In this document: positions 1,117-58,855 of the stretch, piece after piece
Layout: every line of letters begins with the position of its first letter
Position numbering within the stretch: the first letter of the stretch is position 1
From: Squalus acanthias
Lineage: Eukaryota
Assembly: GCA_030390025.1 (NCBI GenBank)
Contig: CM059432.1
Location: 11,408,001-11,472,000, forward strand
Reading direction: 5' to 3'
DNA length: 64,000 nucleotides
Made by a program: the position numbers and the translations under genes
The notes under the pieces: generated by a model
Told to the model about the DNA's origin: nothing
The model's database searches: none
What the model saw: the letters and a program-made list of their open reading frames with translations, nothing else

Positions 1117-4100
1117 CAAATTATAGACCTGTTAGTCTAACATCTGTTGTGAGGAAGTTATTGGAATCTATAATTAAGGACAGAATGACTGAGCACTTAG
1201 AGAAATTTGAGCTGATTAGAGAGAGCCAACATGGATTTGTAAAGGGTAGGTCATGTCTAGCGAACTTAATTGAATTTTTTGAGGAAGTAACTAAAGTTGT
1301 AGACAGGGGAATGTCTATGGCTGTAATTTAGAACATAAGAAATAGGAGCAGGAGTAGGCCATTCGGCCCCTCGAGCTTGCTCCACCATTCAATAAGATCA
1401 TGGCTGATCTTCTACCTCAACTCCACCTTCCCGCACTGTCCCCATATCCCTTGATTCCCTTAGTATCCATCTTTGTAGAGAATTTCAAAGATTCACAACC
1501 CTCCGAGTGAAGAAATTTCTCCTCATCTCAGTCCTAAATGGCCGACCCCCTTATCCTGAGACTATGACCCCTAATTCTAGACTCTCCAGCCAGGGGAAAC
1601 ATCCTCCCAGCATCTACCCTGTCGAGCCCCTTAAGAATTTTATATGTTTCAATGAGATCACCTCTCAATCTTCCAAACGCTATGGAATATAGGCCTAGTC
1701 TACTCAATCTCTCTTAGGACATCCCAGGAATCAATCTATTCATCCTTTGCTGAATTCTAAAATCCTCCCAAATCCTCAGGTTTACTACTTTTTGTGGCAG
1801 CGTTATAAGCTACTTCCTTTAATCTAATACCATCTTTAACTTCTCTGGTTAGCCACGATTGGACCACTTTTCCCATGGGGATTTTATTCCTTAAGGGAAT
1901 GTAAATCATTATGAATTATGAATTATTTCTTTAAATGTTTGCCATTGCTCTCCTCATGTCTTTAATCTAGTTTCCCAATCTACCTGAGCCAACGCGCCCC
2001 TCATACCTACGTAGTTTGCTTTGTTCAGATTTAAGACCCGAGTTTCGAGCTTAACTAAATCACTCTTAAACTCAAGATAAAATTCTATAATATTATGGTC
2101 ACTCTACCCCAGAGACTCCTTTACTACAAGGTTATTAATTAACCCTATTTCATTGCACAATACTAGATGTAAAATGGCCTCTTCCCTAGTTGGTTCCTCG
2201 ACATACTGATCTAGAAAACTATCTTGAATGCATTCTATGAACTCATTCTCTGCACTATTACTGCAAATTTGGTTTGCCCAGTTTACATGAAGATTAAAGT
2301 CCCCCATGATTACTGTATTACCCTTGTTACATGCACCTCTAATTTCCTGATCTATACTGTGCCCAACACGACAACGACTTAGAGGGCCTCTAAGCTACTC
2401 CCCACCAGTGTTTTCTGCCCCTTGTTGTTTCTTAGCTCCATCCAAAGTGATTCTACATATTGATTTTCTGAGCCAAGATCCTTTCTCTCTACTGTCTTTA
2501 TCCCATCCTTTATTATCAGGGCTACCCCCCTCCTTTTCCAATTTGCCTATATCTTATAAAAGTGAAGTCTCTGGAATATTTAGTTCCCAACCTTGGTCAC
2601 TCTGCAACCATGTCTCCATAATGGCTATTAGATCAAACCCATTAATTTTTTACTGTACTATTAATTCATCTATTTTGTTGAGAATGCTTCACACATTTAG
2701 ATATAATGCCTTTAGCTTTAATGTTTTTCTGTTTCCCTGATGTCACCTTAGTCTCTAATGACCTATTACCTTTGTTAAGCGCTGTCCCTTCCTGACACTA
2801 CTCTGCTCTACAGCCTTGACATTTCTCTTACTGCTTTTGGATTTACCCTTTTCTGAACCACCCCTCACCCCCGCCCTGTGTACCTCCCTAGTTATTCAAT
2901 TCTTCAGGACACTGGAGCCTGTCCCAATGGGACAGCTCCGTCTTTCTCCAGAACTGGTGCCGGTGAGGTTCTGCGTTTTAATTTGGACCCTAGCTCTTCA
3001 AATTTTCTCAGCAGAACCTCATTCCTAGTTCTACCTATGTCGTTGGTTCCTGTGTGGACCACGACAACCGCCCCCAACCCCACTCCAAGTTCTTCTCCAG
3101 CCACGAGGCGATGTCCTTAACCCTGGCACCAGGCAGGCAACGCAACCTGCTGTCAAAGAAGCCTTGGAGAGTTGCTGCAGTACATCTTGTAGATGGTACA
3201 CACTGCAGCCAAGATGCGCCGGTGGTGGAGGGAGTGAATGTTTAAGGTGGTCGATGGGATGCCAGTCAAGTGGACTGCCTTGTCCTGGATGGTGTCGAGC
3301 TTCTTGAGTGTTGTTGGAAAGGCTTTTGGGAGTCAGGTGAGTCACTTGCCACAGAATACCCAGCCTCTGACCTGCTCTTGTAGCCACGGTATGTATGTGG
3401 TTGGTCCAGTTAAATTTCTGGTCAATGGTGACCCCTCCCCCCTCCCCCCCCACTCCCGAGGATGTTGATAGTGGGGGATTCGACAATGGTTATGCCGTTG
3501 CATGTCAAGGGGACGTGGTTAGACTCTCTCTTGTTGGAGATGGTCATTGCCTGGCACTTGTGTAGCGCGAATGTTACTTGCCACTTATCAGCCCAAGCCT
3601 CGATATTGGTGGCATAGTAAGTAGTGTAGACAGGTGCATAAAATTACGAAGAGACATTGATAGATTAAGTGAGTGGGCAAAACTGTGGCAGATGGATTTC
3701 AACGCAGGTAAGTGTGAGATCACTTATTTTGGACCAAAAAAGGATAGATCGAGTATTTTTTACTGGTGAAATGGTGGAGTTCCAAAGAGATTTAGGTGTC
3801 CATGTACACAGATCACTAAAATGTAGCAGTCAGATACAAAAAATAATCAAAAAGACTAATGGAATGTTAGTCTTTATAACTAGAGGGCTAGAATATAGAG
3901 GAGGAAGTTTTGCTCCAGCTATACAAAGCCCTGGTTAGACCATATCTGGAGCACAGTGTACAGTTCTGGGCACCGCACCTTAGAAAAGATATATTGGCCT
4001 TGGATGGAGTGCAGCGCAGATTCACCAGAATGTTACCAGGGCTCCAAGGGTTAGATTATGAGGAGAGATTACATAAACTAGGCTTATATTCCCTGGAATA

Positions 4101-9642: not shown

Positions 9643-9846
9643 TAACTGGTGGTCTTAAACATACTTTGGTCACTAGTACACAGAAGCTTAATATTCATTC
9701 TTATAAAGATTAAAGATACATTAGACAGTTACATTCCTGAGGTCTGCTTTTAAAATGCGTACTGTAATTTTAAATGACATAAAAAATCATCTCTTGTTAT
9801 CTCAGTACAAATACAATCCTAAGATGTTTAATTTTTTTGCTTTCAG

Positions 9847-10386
9847 TTAATGTATACTCCAAGATCAAGGGACAGATTTTCAGCTCCATCGTTCATGCAG
9901 AGGGAACGCTTTAGCCGCTTCCAACCCACGTACCCCTACATGCAACATGAGATTGATCTTCCTCCCACCATTTCACTGTCAGACGGAGAGGAACCTCCTC
10001 CATATCAGGGGCTGTGCACATTGCAACTTCGAGATCCAGAACAGCAAATGGAGCTCAACCGTGAGTCCGTCAGGGCTCCGCCCAACAGAACCATCTTTGA
10101 TAGTGACTTGATTGATGTCTCTGTGTATAATGGAGGACCGCGCCCCCCAAGCAGCAATTCGGGCATAAGTGCAACCAATTATAGCAGTAATGGGAGGATG
10201 GAAGGACCGCCACCCACTTACAGCGAGGTCATGGGTCACTACCCAGGGTCAGCTTTTTTCCATCACCAGCACAGCACACCTCCTTCAACACACGGGGGCA
10301 GCGGACATCACTTTCAGCAGAACAGTGAAGACAGTACAATTGTCCCATTCAGAGGGAAGGACTCGCACACAGGAAAAATAGTTTGA
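9847..10386 (+). CDS. LDLRAD4: LDLRAD4 last coding exon (cytoplasmic domain with PY motifs and Smad-interacting motif)
   Basis: tttcag acceptor; [58 protein letters not shown] typical of PMEPA1/LDLRAD4; C-terminus [14 protein letters not shown] and the neighbouring genes favour LDLRAD4; TGA stop. Confidence 0.93.
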
Positions 10387-36554: not shown

Positions 36555-39102
36555 TAGGATTGCGAAGGGGTGGAAAGTTTCCGGAAATTTTCCACGGGAA
36601 GTTTAGCTTGGGAATTTTGCCCAAAAAGCACATGCTAGCATAATATTGTTTCTTTTGTATTTCTTTCTTTTTTTTCCCCACAGGTCCTCTCCTAAAATTA
36701 CTAACAGAGATGGAATCTTAATTATTAAGGAATTTCTTAATCAATATATGTTTATCTTACTTGGCTTGTTTTAATAATTACAAGTTTTGTGTGTGACTGT
36801 GAACAAATGTGTCCCGATTGGTTGGATGAGTGGATGAGCGATTAGCTCCCTCTACTGGTGATGTAGCGTCGTGCGTGCACAGGTCATGCTTCCATCACAT
36901 GGAGCATCAGGAAAAATTTACTCACCCTGTTGCAATCGTGCTGATCAACCGCAGTTCGACACAGAGACGAATGCCCTTTATTTCTCTCCATAGAACAATG
37001 CCACGTTTACCGTCGGATGTGTGGAAGCATTTTACCCCAGGCATTAAAGATGGAAAGACTGTGTACATGTGCAAACACGGTACAAAGTCATATGTAAAGA
37101 ATGCCACAAAGATGCAGCAGCATTTATCCAAATGCAACAACTTCACTCAAAGCTCACAGCAGTCAGCCCAGAGTTCCTCTGCTTCCATTCAAGAAGGTGA
37201 TGGTTCACATTCAGCATCAGGCTCCTTATCATCAGCAACTCCTGGCCCATTTGGAAGGTTCTTTGATACAATGGATAACCATAGCCAGAAGAATGCCTTG
37301 CTCGAGCTGTATATGCGACAGGCTCACCCCTCATGCTCACAGCCAATGTGTACTGGAAGTGATTTTTCAATGTTACTCGCCCTCCATACTGTCCTCCCAC
37401 CAAACATGCTTTGTCTAGTTATTTGCTGGAGGCTGAGTATAACAGAGTCCAAGGAAAGCTCAAAGAAACGATAGAGATGGCAGACTGTGTTGCAGTTATC
37501 TCAGATGGGTGGTCAAATGTACGAGGGGAGGACATCATAAACTACATCGTCTCCACTCCTCTCCCAGTGTTCTTCAAGAGCACAGACACGAAGGACAACA
37601 GACACATACATTGCTGATGAGCTGAAAGCGGTCATCAACGATCTTGGATCACAAAAGGTCTTTGCAGTAGTTACTGACAATGCTGTGAATATGAAGGCTG
37701 CTTGGGCTCAAGTGGAGGAGGCCTACCCTCATATTACATCTATTGGGCTCGCAGCTCATGGGCTCAACCTGCTCCTCAAGGACATCATGGGTTTGAGAAC
37801 CATGGAAACACTGTACAAGAGAGCCAAGCAAGTTGTTAAGTATGTCAGGGGAAAACAGGTAGTTGCAGCAACCTACAACTCCAAGCAAACAACAAAGAAC
37901 AAGAACACCACACTGAAGCTGCCTAGCAACACTAGATGGGGTGGCGTTGTCATAATGTACAACAGCCTTCTGGAGGGTAAGAAGTCACTGCAAGAAATGG
38001 CAATATCCCAGTCTGGGGATATGGAAACCACCATCAAGAAAATACTGCTGGATGATGTGTTTTGGGAGAGAGTGGTTAGCAGCCTTAAACTACTCTCACC
38101 AGTAGCATCTGCAATTGCTCAGATTGAAGGAGATGACGCTGTCTTGTCAGATGTTCTCAGGCTTTTTGCTGATTTAAAAGAACAAATCAGCATTGCCCTA
38201 CCCACATCCCTGCTGCTCAAAGCAGAGAAGGCAATTGTTCAATTCATACAGACGCGTCAAGAATTTTGTGTCAAGTCGATTCGTGCTGCAGCATACATGC
38301 TGGACCCAAAGCATGTTGGGAGACCGATACTTTCTGGAGAACAGATCAACAGCGCTTACAGTGTGATTTCTACCCTCTCACGCCACCTCAATCTGGACGT
38401 GGGCAAAGTTCTGGGAAGTCTGGCAAAGTTCTCTACCAAGCAAGATCTTTGGAATGGGGACAGGATATGGGAATCATGCAAGCATATCAGTACACATACC
38501 TGGTGGAAGGGACTTTGTGCATCTGAGGCCCTGTCACCCATTGCATCGGTGATACTCCAAATCCCACCTTCATCAGCGGCCTCTGAACGAAACTGGTCAC
38601 TTTTTGGGAATACGCATACAATGGTGCGCAACAGGCTGACTAACTAGAGAGTGGAGAAACTGGTGGCTATCCGGGCGAACCTACAACTTATTGAGCCAGA
38701 TACAGAAGTGTCCACCACACAGCTAGACAGTGACACAGAGGAGGAAATGGACACGTCAGAGCCAGAGTCAGAGAATCAGGAGGAGCAATGATGAGTAGAA
38801 GACTCAAAGGGACAAAATAAGGACAAATTACAGGCTAAAATAAGCTGACGCTCTTTTTATTTTATTTTAGATGGGTCTTTTTTGTGGGGGTTCAAAAAAG
38901 TTCAAAAATTATAACCTAAATAAAGTTTTGAAAGCCTGTTTTTATTTGTATGGAACAGTATGTCTATTTTGATGACAAAGATAACATAAGGGTCAGAGAC
39001 AAAAACCATCAGTGTGCAAAAAAACTCTAAATTCCCATAAATTCCCGAAAATTCCCATGGAAAGTTTCCTCTTTTACAAATTCCCGGAATTTTGCAACCC
39101 TA
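36555..39102 (+). mobile_element. Full-length hAT DNA transposon with a disrupted transposase
   Basis: Perfect 8-bp TSD ATGTTGAT (36547-36554, 39103-39110); TIRs TAGGATTGCGA / TTGCAACCCTA; subterminal GGAAAGTTTCC and AAATTCCC repeats. Confidence 0.93.
36998..38790 (+). pseudogene. hAT transposase (BED zinc finger, catalytic core, C-terminal dimerisation domain) with at least two frameshifts and an in-frame stop
   Basis: SDVWKHF..YMCKH..MQQHLSKC (BED-like), SDGWSN, VTDNA, AAHGLNLL, TRW, WW..SSAASERNWS..RNRL; split over ORFs 36830, 37411 and 37685; TAG at 38645. Confidence 0.88.
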
Positions 39103-48500: not shown

Positions 48501-49279
48501 CTAAATGGAACTCAAAAATCCTGGTGGAACTTCAGAAGTCCAAAACCTGACTTTTAAATCCAACTTAGACTGATGGGCCAAAAGTCACTTCTTCTGTGTA
48601 AAATAGTGTTGAAGATTAAAGATCTGAGTTTAAGCGAACAATAGCAAAAAGTGGAGTAGATATGTAAGATACCAATAACATCAGTTTCACGGTGATATTC
48701 GAAAGATGATCCCAAAGTACAAAGTTTTCTTTTTCAGTAATGCATTTTTAGTATTTTTATCATTCTTTTCTCTCCTGTATTGGTCGCCTCCTGTACGAAG
48801 AGAATGAGCTGGAGAGCTCCCTGGATCGATCTTGTGATGCCGTCAGGAGGTGTGTGAGAATAATGAAGGGCTGTCTGACCTGGAGTAAGAGCGGGTGGAG
48901 CACCTGTCGTCTAGCTGCCTTCCGACAGCAATATCCTTGAGATTTAAAAAACTTGCTGCAAAGGAATTGAGGGCTCTAGCTACATCCTGCTGGAACAGAT
49001 CATGTATTAGAGGTCTGGTGTAACATGCTGTCTAGACGTACTCCCCTCAAGCTTTCTTCTTTCGAACAAATTTGTAAAAGCGTATACAGATTAACGCACA
49101 GAGAAAAATATTGACACTCGTCTTTCTAATACAAGTCCCTTTTTTGGAGTTGAGTGCTGGTTTTTTTTGGTTCCCACATACATAGATACATAGATACATA
49201 GAAGATAGGAGCAGGAGTAGGCCATCCGGCCCTTCGAGCCTGCTCCGCCATTTAATGAGATCATGGCTGATCCTTCAAT

Positions 49280-52246
49280 TCAGTATCCCGTCCCCGCCTT
49301 CTCTCCGTAACCCTTAACCCCTTTTGCCTGTAGAAATATATCTAATTCCCTCTTAAATATATTTAATGAGCTGGCGTACACTGCCCTCTGTGGCAATGAG
49401 TTCCACAGGTTCACCACTCTCTGAGTGAAGAAATTCCCCCTCATTTCTGTCCTAAATGGTTTAGCCCTTATCCTTAAATTATGTCCTCTAGTTCTGTTCT
49501 CACCCGCCAAGGGAAACATTCCTTCTGCATCTAGTCTGTCTAGACCTGTCAGAATTTTATACACTTCTATGAGGTCCCCTCTCAATCTTCTAAACTCCAG
49601 TGTGTACATCCCTAAACTACATAGTCTCTCCTCATAGGTCAATCCCGCCATTCCTGGTATCAGCCTGGTGAATCGCCGCTGCACCCCCTCCATGGCAAGA
49701 ACATCTTTCCTCAGATGAGGCGACCAAAACTGTACACAGTACTCGAGGTGTGGTCTCACCAGTGCCCTGTACAGCTGCAGCAAGGTATCCCTGTTCCTGT
49801 ATTCCAACCCTTTTGCTATGAAGGCCAGCATACCGTTTGCCTTCTTGACCGCCTGTTGCACCTGCATGCTCGCCTTCAGTGACTGGTGTACAAGAACACC
49901 CAGGTCTCTCTGTACTTCCCCCTCTCCCAATTTATTGCCATTTAAATAATAATTTGCCCTCCCGTTCCTGCACCCAAGGTGGATAACTTCGCACTTGTCC
50001 ACATTATAGTGCATCTGCCATTTATCCGCCCAATCACCCAGTCTGTCCAAATCGCTCTGGAGCTTCCTGGTCTCCTCCTCTGAGCCCACCCCCCCTCCTA
50101 GTTTAGTGTCGTCTGCAAATTTGGAAATGCTGCATTCGACTCCCTGATCCAGGTCATTAATATAAATTGTGAACAGCTGGGGACCCAGGACAGATCCCTG
50201 TGGTACCCCACTTGTTACTGCCTGCCATTCAGAAAATGAGCCGTTTATTCCAACTCTCTGTTTTCTATCTGACAGCCAGTTCTCTATCCACGTCAATACT
50301 TTCCCCTTTATCCCATGAGCTTCAATTTTCCATGCTAATCTTTTATGTGGGACCTTATCGAAGGCCTTTTGGAAGTCCAGGTACACCACATCTACTGGCT
50401 CTCCCCCATCTATTTTACCAGTTACTCCCTCAAAAAATTCCAATAGATTAGTCAAGCACGATTTACCCTTTGTAAATCCATGTTGACTCTGTCCTATCCT
50501 GTCCCCATTTGCTAAGTGCTCGGCTATTTCATCCTTAATGATGGACTCCAGCATTTTGCCCACAACTGATGTAAGGCTTACAGGTCTGTAATTACCTGCT
50601 TTTTCCCTACCCCCCTTTTTGAATAGTGGGGTAACGTTAGCTACCCTCCAATCCATGGGCACTGTTCCCGAGTCTAATGAATTCTGAAAAATCATGCTTA
50701 GTGCATCCGCTATCTCTAGGGCCACCTCCTTCAGTACCCTAGGATGCATGTTATCAGGCCCTGGGGATTTGTCCGCCTTCAATCCCTTTAGCTTCCTTAA
50801 CACCATATCCTTAGAGATATTGATTTGCGTCAGTTCCTCCTTTGCCAATGTCCCTATTTTTCCCGATATCCCAGGGAGGTTTTTTGTGTCTTCCTTCGTA
50901 AAGACTGACCCAAAGTATGCATTTAGTTGGTCTGCCATTTCCTTATTTCCCATTATATATTCCCCCGTATCTGACTGCAATGGACCAACTTTGGTTTTCA
51001 CCAGTCTTTTCCTCTTGATATACTTATAAAAGCTTTTGGAGTTAGTTTTTATATTTTCCGCCAGCTTGCTTTCGTAAGCTATTTTGCCCTTCTTGATTAA
51101 GCCCTTTGCCCTCCTTTGCTCTATCTTAAACTGTTCCCAATCTTCCGCTCTGGCGCGTTTTTTGGCTATTTTATACGCCCTATCTTTGGATTTTATGCTG
51201 TCTCTAATTTCCCCTGTTATCCACGGTTGAGTCACCTTTTTAGATTTCCTTTTATGCCAGATTGGTATAAACAATTTTTGCAATTTTGTCATTCTATCTT
51301 TAAATGCTTGCCATTGTTTATCTACCTCCAGTCCTCCCAGGAACGTTGTCCAATCAGACCTACTCAGTTCCCGTCTAATGGCATCATAATTCCCCTTGTT
51401 TAAATTCAGGACCTGAGTCTCTGAGTCAATTTCTTCGCTCTCCATTTCGAGTGAGAAATCGATCATGTTATGATCGCTCTGACCCAAGGGTCCCCGTACA
51501 ACAAGATTACTAATTAGTCCCTTCTCATTGCACAGTACCCAGTCCAATATAGCCTGTTCCCGAGTTGGTTCCTCGACATATTGATCCAGATAACCATCCC
51601 TTAAACACTCAAGGAATTCCTCCTCCTCATTATTTTTACTGATTAGGCTAGTCCAATCTATATGTAAGTTAAAGTCACCTATGATGACAGCTGTGCTCTT
51701 ATTGCACGCTTCTCTAATTTCCCTCGTGATGCCCTCCCCAACCTCTATTTTACTATTTGGAGGCCTATATACCACTCCTATTAATGTTTTTCGCCCCTCG
51801 CTATTTCTTAGCTCCACCCATATAGATTCTGTATTAACTGAGTTAATATCCTTCCTTTCAATTGCATTTATCCCCTCTTTTACCAGCAATGCTACCCCTC
51901 CTCCCTTTCTTTTTTGTCGATCCTTCCTAAATACTGAATACCCCTGTATGTTAAGCTCCCAGCCCTGCTCACCCTGCAACCATGTTTCCGTAATCCCAAT
52001 TAGATCATAATTATTAACCTCTATTTCCACAGCTAATTCATCTACCTTGTTCCTGATGCTTCTCGCATTAAGGTATAAAACCCTCAGGCTTTTTTTATGC
52101 TCACATTTTTTATGAATTAGTTTGGCCCTTTGTTTTTTGTTCCTCTCCTTTTTACCATTTATTTCTGTCTGCCTTTCACTTTCCTCTATTTCACTACATG
52201 GGTTTCTAGCCCCCTGCCATACTAGTTTAAATGCTCCCGAACTGCT
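49280..52246 (-). CDS. CR1 ORF2: APE endonuclease and reverse transcriptase (open frame stop-to-stop; no AUG before the endonuclease)
   Basis: LYLNARSI, GITETW, GDFN, SDH, NYRPVSLTS, GVPQGSVLGP, FADD; my translation shows the frame stays open from the listed GTG at 52030 up to 52246. Confidence 0.92.
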   Translation of the reverse strand, partial: SSSGAFKLVWQGARNPCSEIEESERQTEINGKKERNKKQRAKLIHKKCEHKKSLRVLYLNARSIRNKVDELAVEIEVNNYDLIGITETWLQGEQGWELNIQGYSVFRKDRQKRKGGGVALLVKEGINAIERKDINSVNTESIWVELRNSEGRKTLIGVVYRPPNSKIEVGEGITREIREACNKSTAVIIGDFNLHIDWTSLISKNNEEEEFLECLRDGYLDQYVEEPTREQAILDWVLCNEKGLISNLVVRGPLGQSDHNMIDFSLEMESEEIDSETQVLNLNKGNYDAIRRELSRSDWTTFLGGLEVDKQWQAFKDRMTKLQKLFIPIWHKRKSKKVTQPWITGEIRDSIKSKDRAYKIAKKRARAEDWEQFKIEQRRAKGLIKKGKIAYESKLAENIKTNSKSFYKYIKRKRLVKTKVGPLQSDTGEYIMGNKEMADQLNAYFGSVFTKEDTKNLPGISGKIGTLAKEELTQINISKDMVLRKLKGLKADKSPGPDNMHPRVLKEVALEIADALSMIFQNSLDSGTVPMDWRVANVTPLFKKGGREKAGNYRPVSLTSVVGKMLESIIKDEIAEHLANGDRIGQSQHGFTKGKSCLTNLLEFFEGVTGKIDGGEPVDVVYLDFQKAFDKVPHKRLAWKIEAHGIKGKVLTWIENWLSDRKQRVGINGSFSEWQAVTSGVPQGSVLGPQLFTIYINDLDQGVECSISKFADDTKLGGGVGSEEETRKLQSDLDRLGDWADKWQMHYNVDKCEVIHLGCRNGRANYYLNGNKLGEGEVQRDLGVLVHQSLKASMQVQQAVKKANGMLAFIAKGLEYRNRDTLLQLYRALVRPHLEYCVQFWSPHLRKDVLAMEGVQRRFTRLIPGMAGLTYEERLCSLGMYTLEFRRLRGDLIEVYKILTGLDRLDAEGMFPLAGENRTRGHNLRIRAKPFRTEMRGNFFTQRVVNLWNSLPQRAVYASSLNIFKRELDIFLQAKGVKGYGEKAGTGY

Positions 52247-53127
52247 TTATCAAAATTTACCCCGAGAACCTCAGTTCCATCTTTGCACAGGTGTAGACCG
52301 TCCCTTTTGTATAGGTCACACCTACCACAAAACTGGTCCCAATGCCTCAAAAATTTAAAACCCTCCCTCTTACACCACTGCTCAAGCCACGTATTTAGCC
52401 TAACTATCCTGTTCTCTGTACTCTTACTAGCACGTGGCACTGGTAGTAATCCAGAGATTACTACCTTCGAGGTCCTACTTTTTAGCTTGGCTCCTAACTC
52501 CCTAAATTCTACTTGTAGGACCTCTTCCCTTTTTTTAGCTACGTCGTTGGTACCAACATGTATCACGACAACTGGCTGTTCCCCCTCCCCCTCCAGAATG
52601 TTCTGCACCCGCGCCGAGACATCCTTGACCCTTGCACCAGGGAGGCAAATTACCATCCTGGAGTCTCGGTCGCGACCACAGAAACTCCTATCTATTCCCC
52701 TTACAATCGAATCCCCTATTACTATAGCCCTGCCACTCTTTTTCCCTCCCTTCTTTGCAACAGAGCCAGTCATGGTGCCATGAGCCTGGCTGCTGGTGCC
52801 TTCCCCCGATGAGTCATCCCCCCCGACAACAGCACCTAAGGCGGTGAACCTGTTGCTGAGGGAGACAACCCCAGGGGATTCCTGCACTACCTTCCTGCCC
52901 TTGCTCTGCCTTTTGGTCACCCATGTACTATCTACTCTGGCCTTAACCTGCGGTGTGACCAACTCACTAAATGTGCTATTCACAACCCTCTCAGAATCGT
53001 GGATGCTCCAAAGTGAGTCCATCCGCAGCTCAAGGGCCGTCATGCGGTCCCACATGAGCTGCAGCTGGACACACTTCCCGCACACATGGTTGTCAGGGAC
53101 ACAGGAAGCGTCCCTGATTTCCCACAT
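52222..53127 (-). CDS. CR1 ORF1: partial zinc-finger/coiled-coil plus SGNH esterase domain
   Basis: HVCGKC followed by heptad Leu repeats; GDS, PGA, HVGTND, DGLH esterase blocks. Confidence 0.9.
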   Translation of the reverse strand: MWEIRDASCVPDNHVCGKCVQLQLMWDRMTALELRMDSLWSIHDSERVVNSTFSELVTPQVKARVDSTWVTKRQSKGRKVVQESPGVVSLSNRFTALGAVVGGDDSSGEGTSSQAHGTMTGSVAKKGGKKSGRAIVIGDSIVRGIDRSFCGRDRDSRMVICLPGARVKDVSARVQNILEGEGEQPVVVIHVGTNDVAKKREEVLQVEFRELGAKLKSRTSKVVISGLLPVPRASKSTENRIVRLNTWLEQWCKREGFKFLRHWDQFCGRCDLYKRDGLHLCKDGTEVLGVNFDKAVREHLN

Positions 53128-53244
53128 GCTTTCTTACACATTGCGGATTTCGTCTTTCAGCAGCAGGTTAATTAAGAAGAGTTTCAAACATCCAAAATTA
53201 AGAAACAGATCAGGAATCTACAGACATGGGAGCACCTGCGTTAA

Positions 53245-53815
53245 AATATGTAGGACCCTGGTGAGACCACACCTGGAGTATTGTGTACAGTTTTTGTCTC
53301 CTTACCGAAGGAAGGATATACTTGCCATAGCGGGAGTGCAACGAAGGTTCACCAGACTGGTTCCTGGGATGGTGGGGGAGTGTCCTATGAGAAGAGATTG
53401 AGTAGACTAGGCCTATATTCTCTAGAGTTTAGAAGAATGAGAGGTGATCTCATTGAAACATACAAAATTCTTTCAGGGCTTGACAGGGTAGATGCAGGGA
53501 GGATGTTTCCCCTGGCTGGGGAGTCTAGAAAAAGGGGTCACAGTCTCAGAATAAGGGGTCGGCCATTTAGGACTGAGATGAGGAGAAATTTCTTCACTCA
53601 GGGTGGTGAATCTTTGGAATTCTCTACCCCAGAGGGCTGTGGAGGCTCAGTCGTTGAGTATATTCAAGACAGAGATCGATAGAATATTAAGGGAATCAGG
53701 GGATATGGGGATCGTACAGAAAAGCAGAGATGAGGTAGAAGATCAGCCATGATCTTATTGAATGGCGGAGCAGGCTCGAAGGGCCAAATGGCCTACTCCT
53801 GCTCCTATTTCTTAT
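53245..53815 (+). mobile_element. CR1 LINE 3' fragment
   Basis: [24 protein letters not shown] and CR1 3' UTR. Confidence 0.85.
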
Positions 53816-58022: not shown

Positions 58023-58855
58023 AGCAAAATACTGCGGATGCTGGAAATCTGAAATAACAACAGAAAATGCTAGAAACACTCAGCAGGCCAGGCAGCATCC
58101 GTGGAGAGAGAAACAGAGTCAACGTTTCAGGTCTGGGACCCTTCATCAGAGAAGGCTAGAGATGTAACAGATATTAAGCAGGTGCAGAGGCAGGGAAAGG
58201 GGGAGGGGAGGGGAGGGGAGGAAGGAATATTCTGTGCTAGGGTAGGAGGCAGGAGAGATAAAATGTTGCAAATGGGGATGGCAAAATCATAAACAGCCTG
58301 AAAAATGGGGGTAGGGGTTATAGTCTGAAATTGTTGAACTCAATGTTGAGTCCAGAAGGCTGTAAAGTGCCTAATCGAAAGATGAGGTGCTGTTCCTCGA
58401 GCTTACGTTGAGCTTCATTGGAACAGTGTAAGAGGCCGAGGACAGAGAGATCAGAGTGGGAGTGGAGCGGAGAATTAAAGTGACAGGCGACCGGAAGCTC
58501 GGGGTCACCCGTACGGACTGAACGGAGGTGTTCCGCAAAGCGGTCGCCCAATCTGCGTTTGGTCTCCCCAATGTAGAGGAGACCGCATCGTGAGCAGCGA
58601 ATACAGTATACTAAATTGCAAGAAGTACAAGTAAATCGCTGTTTCACCTGGAAGGGGTGTTTGGGGCCCTGGACAGTGGGAAGGGAGGAGGTTAAAGGGC
58701 AGGTGTTGCATCTCCTGCGCTTGCACGGGAAGGTGCCGTGGGGAGGGGCTGTTGGGGGTGATTGAGGAGTGGACCAGGGTGTCGCGGAGGGAGCGGTCCC
58801 ATCGGAATGCTGAAAGGGGAGGTGAGGGGAAGATGCGTTTGTTGGTGGGACCCTT
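58023..58855 (-). mobile_element. Penelope-like element 3' fragment with GIY-YIG endonuclease and terminal repeat
   Basis: ORF 58318-58647 FTCTSCNLVYCIRCSRCGLLYIGETKRRLGDRFAEH..VACHF..EEQHLIFRLGTLQPSGLN. Confidence 0.9.

Follow-up and report, generated by a model that had tools for sequence, protein, structure and literature searches.

A conserved slippery heptamer at the ORF1-ORF2 junction suggests -1 ribosomal frameshifting in shark CR1 LINEs

A putative frameshift site in a CR1 element of Squalus acanthias

The minus strand of the 64,000-nucleotide (nt) stretch of Squalus acanthias DNA analysed here ("the window"; GenBank assembly GCA_030390025.1, contig CM059432.1, positions 11,408,001 to 11,472,000) carries a long interspersed nuclear element (LINE) that is, based on its domain layout and on the named relatives of the protein of its first open reading frame (ORF1), an esterase-ORF1 CR1. 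Comparison of its ORF1-ORF2 junction with those of divergent relatives indicates that ORF2, which encodes the endonuclease and the reverse transcriptase, is most probably translated as an ORF1p-ORF2p fusion, through -1 programmed ribosomal frameshifting at a U_UUA_AAC heptamer followed immediately by a stop codon (Table 1).

The layout of this junction, first described in a first-pass annotation, can be read directly in the DNA. ORF1 ends on the minus strand with GAG CAT TTA AAC TAG, the heptamer standing in the X_XXY_YYZ register of the zero frame right before the stop. The -1 frame opens at 52246, just past TGA TAA (52252-52247), overlaps the sense codons of ORF1 by 22 nt and remains open up to a stop at 49280. 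Its first AUG (51466, codon 261) lies four codons past the SDH motif of the endonuclease (51478), and no AUG precedes the endonuclease in the family of this element. The combination of heptamer and stop occurs twice in the window, both strands counted, and the joint frequency of the exact heptamer codons, the residues being given, is 0.018; we therefore do not consider the heptamer at the junction to be there by chance.

Among junctions from the same genome (loci L001-L120 and L221-L240), the -1-frame stop lies exactly 22 nt upstream of the ORF1 end in five types and 118 nt upstream in one. In an annotated ray protein (P0027), the ORF1 reading continues at the junction directly in the -1 frame (GFKL), which probably reflects an indel-bearing copy or a gene-model artefact.

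Conservation of the heptamer across CR1 lineages

Conservation among sister copies was discarded as evidence: the same genome holds 736 candidate copies of the family, the best 40 of which are all 100% identical over 451 nt, and by its sequences the family is very young. Other subfamilies were fetched with divergent ORF1 protein queries, which gave 130 own-genome loci (the best 20-30 of ~126-129 scored per search, a few places being represented twice), and 80 metagenome loci were added as a further sample. Junctions were located by tblastn to the ORF1 C-terminus, independently of the heptamer; the queries end in Leu-Asn (LN), so that a bias is possible toward these residues, not toward their codons. 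Searches of the own genome with P0012 and P0016 as queries gave no match under an over-strict cut-off, and a pattern scan of viral contigs for full-length bird-type elements gave none; 80 prokaryote loci that were retrieved showed no similarity to CR1.

The exact heptamer is present in 128 of the 130 own-genome loci, 127 of them with TAA behind it, as well as in 30/30 sisters of the window element. Fourteen of the 80 metagenome loci reach the C-terminus with enough flank: seven carry heptamer and stop, two have the heptamer displaced by indels, and five are distant or misprojected. A search with one of the seven heptamer-bearing loci retrieved proteins named from many birds. Clustering resulted in 13 lineages, six from the own genome and seven of bird type, with 42-83% identity in the upstream 240 nt; this count excludes L122 and L184, whose heptamer is displaced by indels, L129, which breaks off where its locus ends, and distant loci that are not CR1.

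All 13 lineages retain the heptamer, its phase and a stop right behind it, the stop itself being TAG, TAA or TGA. The third base is invariant in 5 of the 134 ungapped columns of the codon alignment, and three of these five belong to the heptamer. TTA and AAC are each used in 13/13 lineages, compared to a fixed codon in 1 of 21 other near-invariant residues, and the first T of the heptamer is invariant beneath differing residues. The branch lengths of the ORF1 tree of these lineages sum to ~6.5 amino-acid changes per column. Finally, the endonuclease motif is found in the -1 frame, and in no other frame, in 10/10 placeable lineages, behind linkers of 37-67 codons. The inference, drawn earlier from the window alone, that -1 frameshifting fuses ORF1 to ORF2 is supported by these comparative tests.

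Traces of related heptamers in ORF1 proteins

Among proteins aligning to the C-terminus, ORF1 ends in LN in 32/35 shark/ray-type and 95/105 bird-type sequences, and in 0/18 more distant ones. In a set of 150 cluster representatives (50% identity), 113 extend to the end of the profile, and LN closes 52 of these. The residue preceding LN is one that has no T-ending codon (E, Q, K, M, W) in 1/52 cases versus 17% in the background (p 0.0007, relatedness ignored). Nine cluster representatives end in QGN and ten have KN 21-25 residues past a DGxH motif; these ends match the protein shadows that G_GGA_AAC and A_AAA_AAC would leave. The KN class was read in DNA once, in L124 (1808-1814), where A_AAA_AAC stands in the ORF1 register, ~12 codons ahead of the stop, and an open -1 frame leads into the endonuclease. 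A swap of the XXX triplet with AAAC kept is predicted by tRNA re-pairing, not by restart or protein constraint. On mammalian ribosomes, U_UUA_AAC, G_GGA_AAC and A_AAA_AAC all belong to the four heptamers most prone to shifting (PMC5009743).

Distant esterase-ORF1 LINEs without heptamer (L121, L127, L143, L148, L151, L152, L154, L156, L158, L170, L173, L174, L179, L185 and others) present another kind of junction. Their ORF1 stop is TGA followed by C in 19/26 junctions, mostly TGA CTA or TGA CCA, and in most of these TGA-C junctions the endonuclease motif lies 69-130 codons further along without a change of frame, resembling readthrough; many of these loci are interrelated. One shark-type CR1 ORF1 (P0008) carries the annotation of an SGNH hydrolase from Pseudomonas aeruginosa, which probably reflects host contamination of the record.

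A conserved G tract behind the heptamer

Conservation within the 90 nt behind the site concerns the stop, G at +11 to +15, and G at +18 and +19. The five tract positions hold G in 13, 13, 12, 13 and 12 of the 13 lineages, beneath five different residues (Q, G, R, K or L), where at least four G among five would be found in 4% of the background. The Gly codon in the tract is GGG in 12/12 lineages with Gly there versus 36% elsewhere. This tract is our candidate stimulator. No consistent pairing partner was found for it in the tail or in other parts of the element. A C-rich stretch ~650 nt upstream is the best of 82 bins as a partner, but this pairing was rejected, as it has no common register and is explained by Pro/Ser/Leu codons. 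A two-tier G-quadruplex pattern appears in 9/14 junctions, as a raw pattern count; a natural G-quadruplex acting as frameshift stimulator was not known as of 2016 (PMC5009743).

The tract invites comparison with the virus of the porcine reproductive and respiratory syndrome, where nsp1beta and PCBP act on a motif rich in C that lies 11 nt 3' of the shift site (PMC5009743). Both are short, unstructured, homopolymer-rich motifs, and their spacing from the shift site is about equal. The likeness is an analogy: the viral motif is C-rich and has bound proteins, whereas the CR1 tract is G-rich and a candidate signal only.

Opposing observations and alternative routes to ORF2

Several observations weigh against frameshifting. 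The 13 lineages share kinship and hence do not represent 13 independent trials. A weak search for longer fused proteins gave three distant matches, none from the CR1 family of the window. DNA for QGN-ending ORF1 was searched and none was found, the GN class being known at the protein level only. Nor did structure predictions favor a classical stimulator. The downstream hairpin suggested by the first-pass annotation folds at -7.8 kcal/mol (z -0.51), no better than shuffles, and is not conserved, being paired in 52% of alignment cells with covariation like that of shuffles. Stable folds were found in 0/13 lineages at 40 or 70 nt and in 1/13 at 100 nt, with z-scores near zero; the consensus fold of the junction alignment is empty, and no consistent or convincing local pseudoknot candidate was found at the junctions. 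Pairing of the junction with the element's own 3' tail was best in 1/7 and within background in 5/7 of seven own-genome junctions, and the window family lacks the two-tier G-quadruplex pattern. Because no hairpin or pseudoknot lies behind the site, the element is not classed as a structure-stimulated frameshift site. Further, an in-frame AUG precedes the endonuclease in 4/6 own lineages and in 4/4 readable bird-type loci, and stop and start overlap as UAAUG in one own lineage, exactly at the stop, and in L182.

Such AUGs would fit termination-reinitiation, in which ribosomes that have stopped behind ORF1 resume translation in the -1 frame, from an AUG or near-cognate codon close by, and produce free ORF2p, the heptamer and G tract serving as cis restart signals. 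This is the route given for L1 and SART1 (PMC2881922, PMC3894237, PMC5009743), L1 initiation being termed AUG-independent (PMC5009743), and the AUG two codons past the stop in bird-type L123, L126 and L132 and the CUG at 52087, just before the window endonuclease, could be used in the same way. Yet the AUG shifts among lineages (codon index 3, 4, 16, 19, 22, 44 or 47) or is absent, including in the youngest family, while the heptamer is invariant. No AUG is found upstream of the endonuclease in 30/30 sisters and in 47/49 loci of a second lineage, and the UAAUG overlap is absent in the window family. The earlier description of ORF2 as AUG-less thus holds for the window family and one further lineage, and not for CR1 generally, as most lineages have an AUG before the endonuclease. 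Moreover, restart has no need of X_XXA_AAC or of a change to GN or KN, and the -1 frame is open all the way from the heptamer to AUGs far downstream. We regard reinitiation as an unlikely explanation of the junction; it keeps some standing as a competing or additional route, although it is not the AUG that is conserved.

Joining at the RNA level, through splicing or through slippage of the polymerase on UUU or AAA, would bring ORF2 in frame for normal translation and likewise explain a fusion without AUG; G runs are intronic splicing enhancers. The junction shows, however, neither a GT donor nor a pyrimidine tract that is conserved, and contigs of four runs showed no joint and no listed indel at the heptamer, a weak point as it concerns contigs only, whose RNA status is guessed. 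Runs of three are also short for transcriptional slippage, for which runs of 9 are named (PMC5009743). RNA-level joining is very improbable.

The least probable account, largely refuted by the codon comparisons, is that the heptamer is a by-product of descent or of a need of ORF1p for C-terminal Leu-Asn: LN does close a conserved helix and the lineages have a common ancestry, but TTA and AAC are fixed throughout while codons of other conserved Leu and Asn vary, the wobble T preceding LN is fixed beneath different residues, and ORF2 of the window family would be left without a route to translation.

Proposed mechanism and relation to known systems

Under -1 frameshifting, most ribosomes would terminate at the ORF1 stop and release the 315-amino-acid ORF1p. 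In a minority of them, tRNA-Leu and tRNA-Asn would re-pair from UUA AAC onto UUU AAA and continue in the -1 frame, yielding a fusion of ~1,296 amino acids (315 + 981) with the predicted junction peptide EHLNLVWQGAR. The pause might be caused by the stop next to the heptamer and by the G tract lying 11-15 nt downstream, which would most likely act as a protein-binding site or two-tier G-quadruplex, and not as a local hairpin or pseudoknot.

The coronavirus infectious bronchitis virus uses an identical U_UUA_AAC heptamer in the same register to fuse a structural ORF to a polymerase ORF (PMC5009743). Unlike viral elements, the CR1 site has no pseudoknot or stable hairpin behind it, its stop follows immediately, and no protease for the fusion is encoded (none by Pfam). 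Frameshifting as such has a precedent among LINEs, since a review legend states that a -1 frameshift is required for ORF2 of the APE-type non-LTR elements TRE5-A and TRE3-A of Dictyostelium (PMC5911963); these belong to another clade and have another ORF1. SART1, with its UAAUG coupling, and L1, with its reinitiation, also have bicistronic LINE RNA, and UAAUG occurs in one sister lineage; the window family differs in having no in-frame AUG near the stop, its conserved feature being the heptamer. The translation mode of LINE ORF2 has been called an open question (PMC3894237).

The canonical vertebrate CR1 (PMC13343379) resembles the window element in its SGNH esterase ORF1, APE and reverse transcriptase ORF2, short-repeat tail and 5' truncation; sharks, rays and birds have named relatives. 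According to this survey, 22-34% of shark and ray genomes consists of CR1-group elements; it does not mention "frameshift", "overlap" or "translation" or address ORF2 production (PMC13343379). Literature on CR1 and ribosomal frameshifting, a coverage that leaves the founding CR1 papers outside, contained no claim of frameshifting in CR1. A 22-nt ORF overlap was reportedly described for turtle CR1, possibly with a suggestion of frameshifting, which would limit the novelty of the present proposal to the conservation and the G tract.

The tested LINE cases, L1 and SART1, yield separate ORF2p. If CR1 does shift frame, frameshifting would set the ratio of ORF1p to polymerase and tether the reverse transcriptase to an esterase coat; it would also account for the difficult annotation of ORF2 and guide the building of a working CR1 retrotransposition assay. 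The heptamer and G tract are short and open to direct test. With somewhat more doubt than confidence, we further propose that esterase-ORF1 LINEs as a rule produce the polymerase fused, as ORF1p-ORF2p, and that the recoding device is exchanged between lineages: U_UUA_AAC with a G tract in vertebrate CR1 (a new kind of stimulator, protein-read or quadruplex, with no Watson-Crick structure), G_GGA_AAC or A_AAA_AAC in others, and UGA-C readthrough in others still (19/26 non-heptamer junctions). Were this rule true, the LINE that is most abundant in sharks, reptiles and birds would be a gag-pol-like system.

The element and its surroundings

The first-pass annotation had called the CR1 copy intact; it turned out to be 5'-truncated. 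Identity with full-length sisters, which have up to 652 nt in common upstream of the ORF1 AUG and encode an ORF1 of 315 amino acids, ends at ~53128, and the 5' untranslated region (UTR) is gone, as are the initial 14 codons of ORF1 with the first CxxC among them. The 9-mer at the 5' junction is present again at 49171-49179, behind the tail, which is a short tandem repeat and not poly(A). The rest of the copy is 99.85% identical to one full-length sister (3945 nt compared). This copy has no 5' UTR, and it is itself probably no source element. The esterase of ORF1 matches PF13472 (E 1.2e-11), and ORF2 matches PF14529 alongside PF03372 and PF00078. The closest named ORF1 relatives are from sawshark, skates and rays.

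Table 1. Features of the CR1 element and of its ORF1-ORF2 junction in the window.
Feature	Position	Strand	Remarks
Esterase-ORF1 CR1 LINE, 5'-truncated copy	ORF1 52222..53127, ORF2 49280..52246, 3' UTR 49180..49279	minus	
5' junction of truncated copy	53119..53127	minus	9-nt candidate target-site duplication, equal to first 9 nt of retained element (microhomology)
ORF1 remnant	52222..53127	minus	301/315 codons: partial zinc finger, then SGNH esterase
Slippery heptamer U_UUA_AAC	52225..52231	minus	X_XXY_YYZ zero-frame register; T 52231, TTA 52230-52228, AAC 52227-52225
ORF1 stop	52222..52224	minus	Directly 3' of heptamer; TAG in this copy, other lineages having TAA or TGA
G5 tract	52210..52214	minus	11-15 nt behind heptamer; candidate stimulator
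In-frame CUG	52085..52087	minus	Just upstream of endonuclease; possible non-AUG start under reinitiation
ORF2, -1 frame	49280..52246	minus	988 codons counted from stop to stop; encodes a basic linker, then endonuclease and reverse transcriptase
APE-type endonuclease	51470..52069	minus	PF03372, ORF2 residues 60-259; entire domain upstream of first AUG (51466)
Reverse transcriptase	49979..50611	minus	PF00078, ORF2 residues 546-756, E 1.5e-31
3' UTR	49180..49279	minus	Predicted stem-loop (fold of sister L247) and short tandem-repeat tail

Other remnants of mobile elements are found in the window. An older, decayed CR1 (2640-3180, minus strand) consists of an ORF1 remnant and the start of ORF2, and its eroded junction retains AAC-stop followed by G runs; 3' fragments of an older CR1 (53219-53800, plus strand) adjoin the young element in opposite orientation. 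An open frame at 9832-10386 (plus strand) has two PPxY motifs and no Pfam match and is likely a host coding exon, which we take to resemble PMEPA1/LDLRAD4. A broken hAT-type DNA transposase (DUF659 and hAT dimerisation domain) lies at 36830-38647 on the plus strand, and a GIY-YIG-like C-terminus with a weak Pfam match at 58318-58854 on the minus strand, likely a fragment of a Penelope-type element. Among the CR1 relatives, the 3' UTR of the L248 subfamily seems to contain two tandem tail modules.

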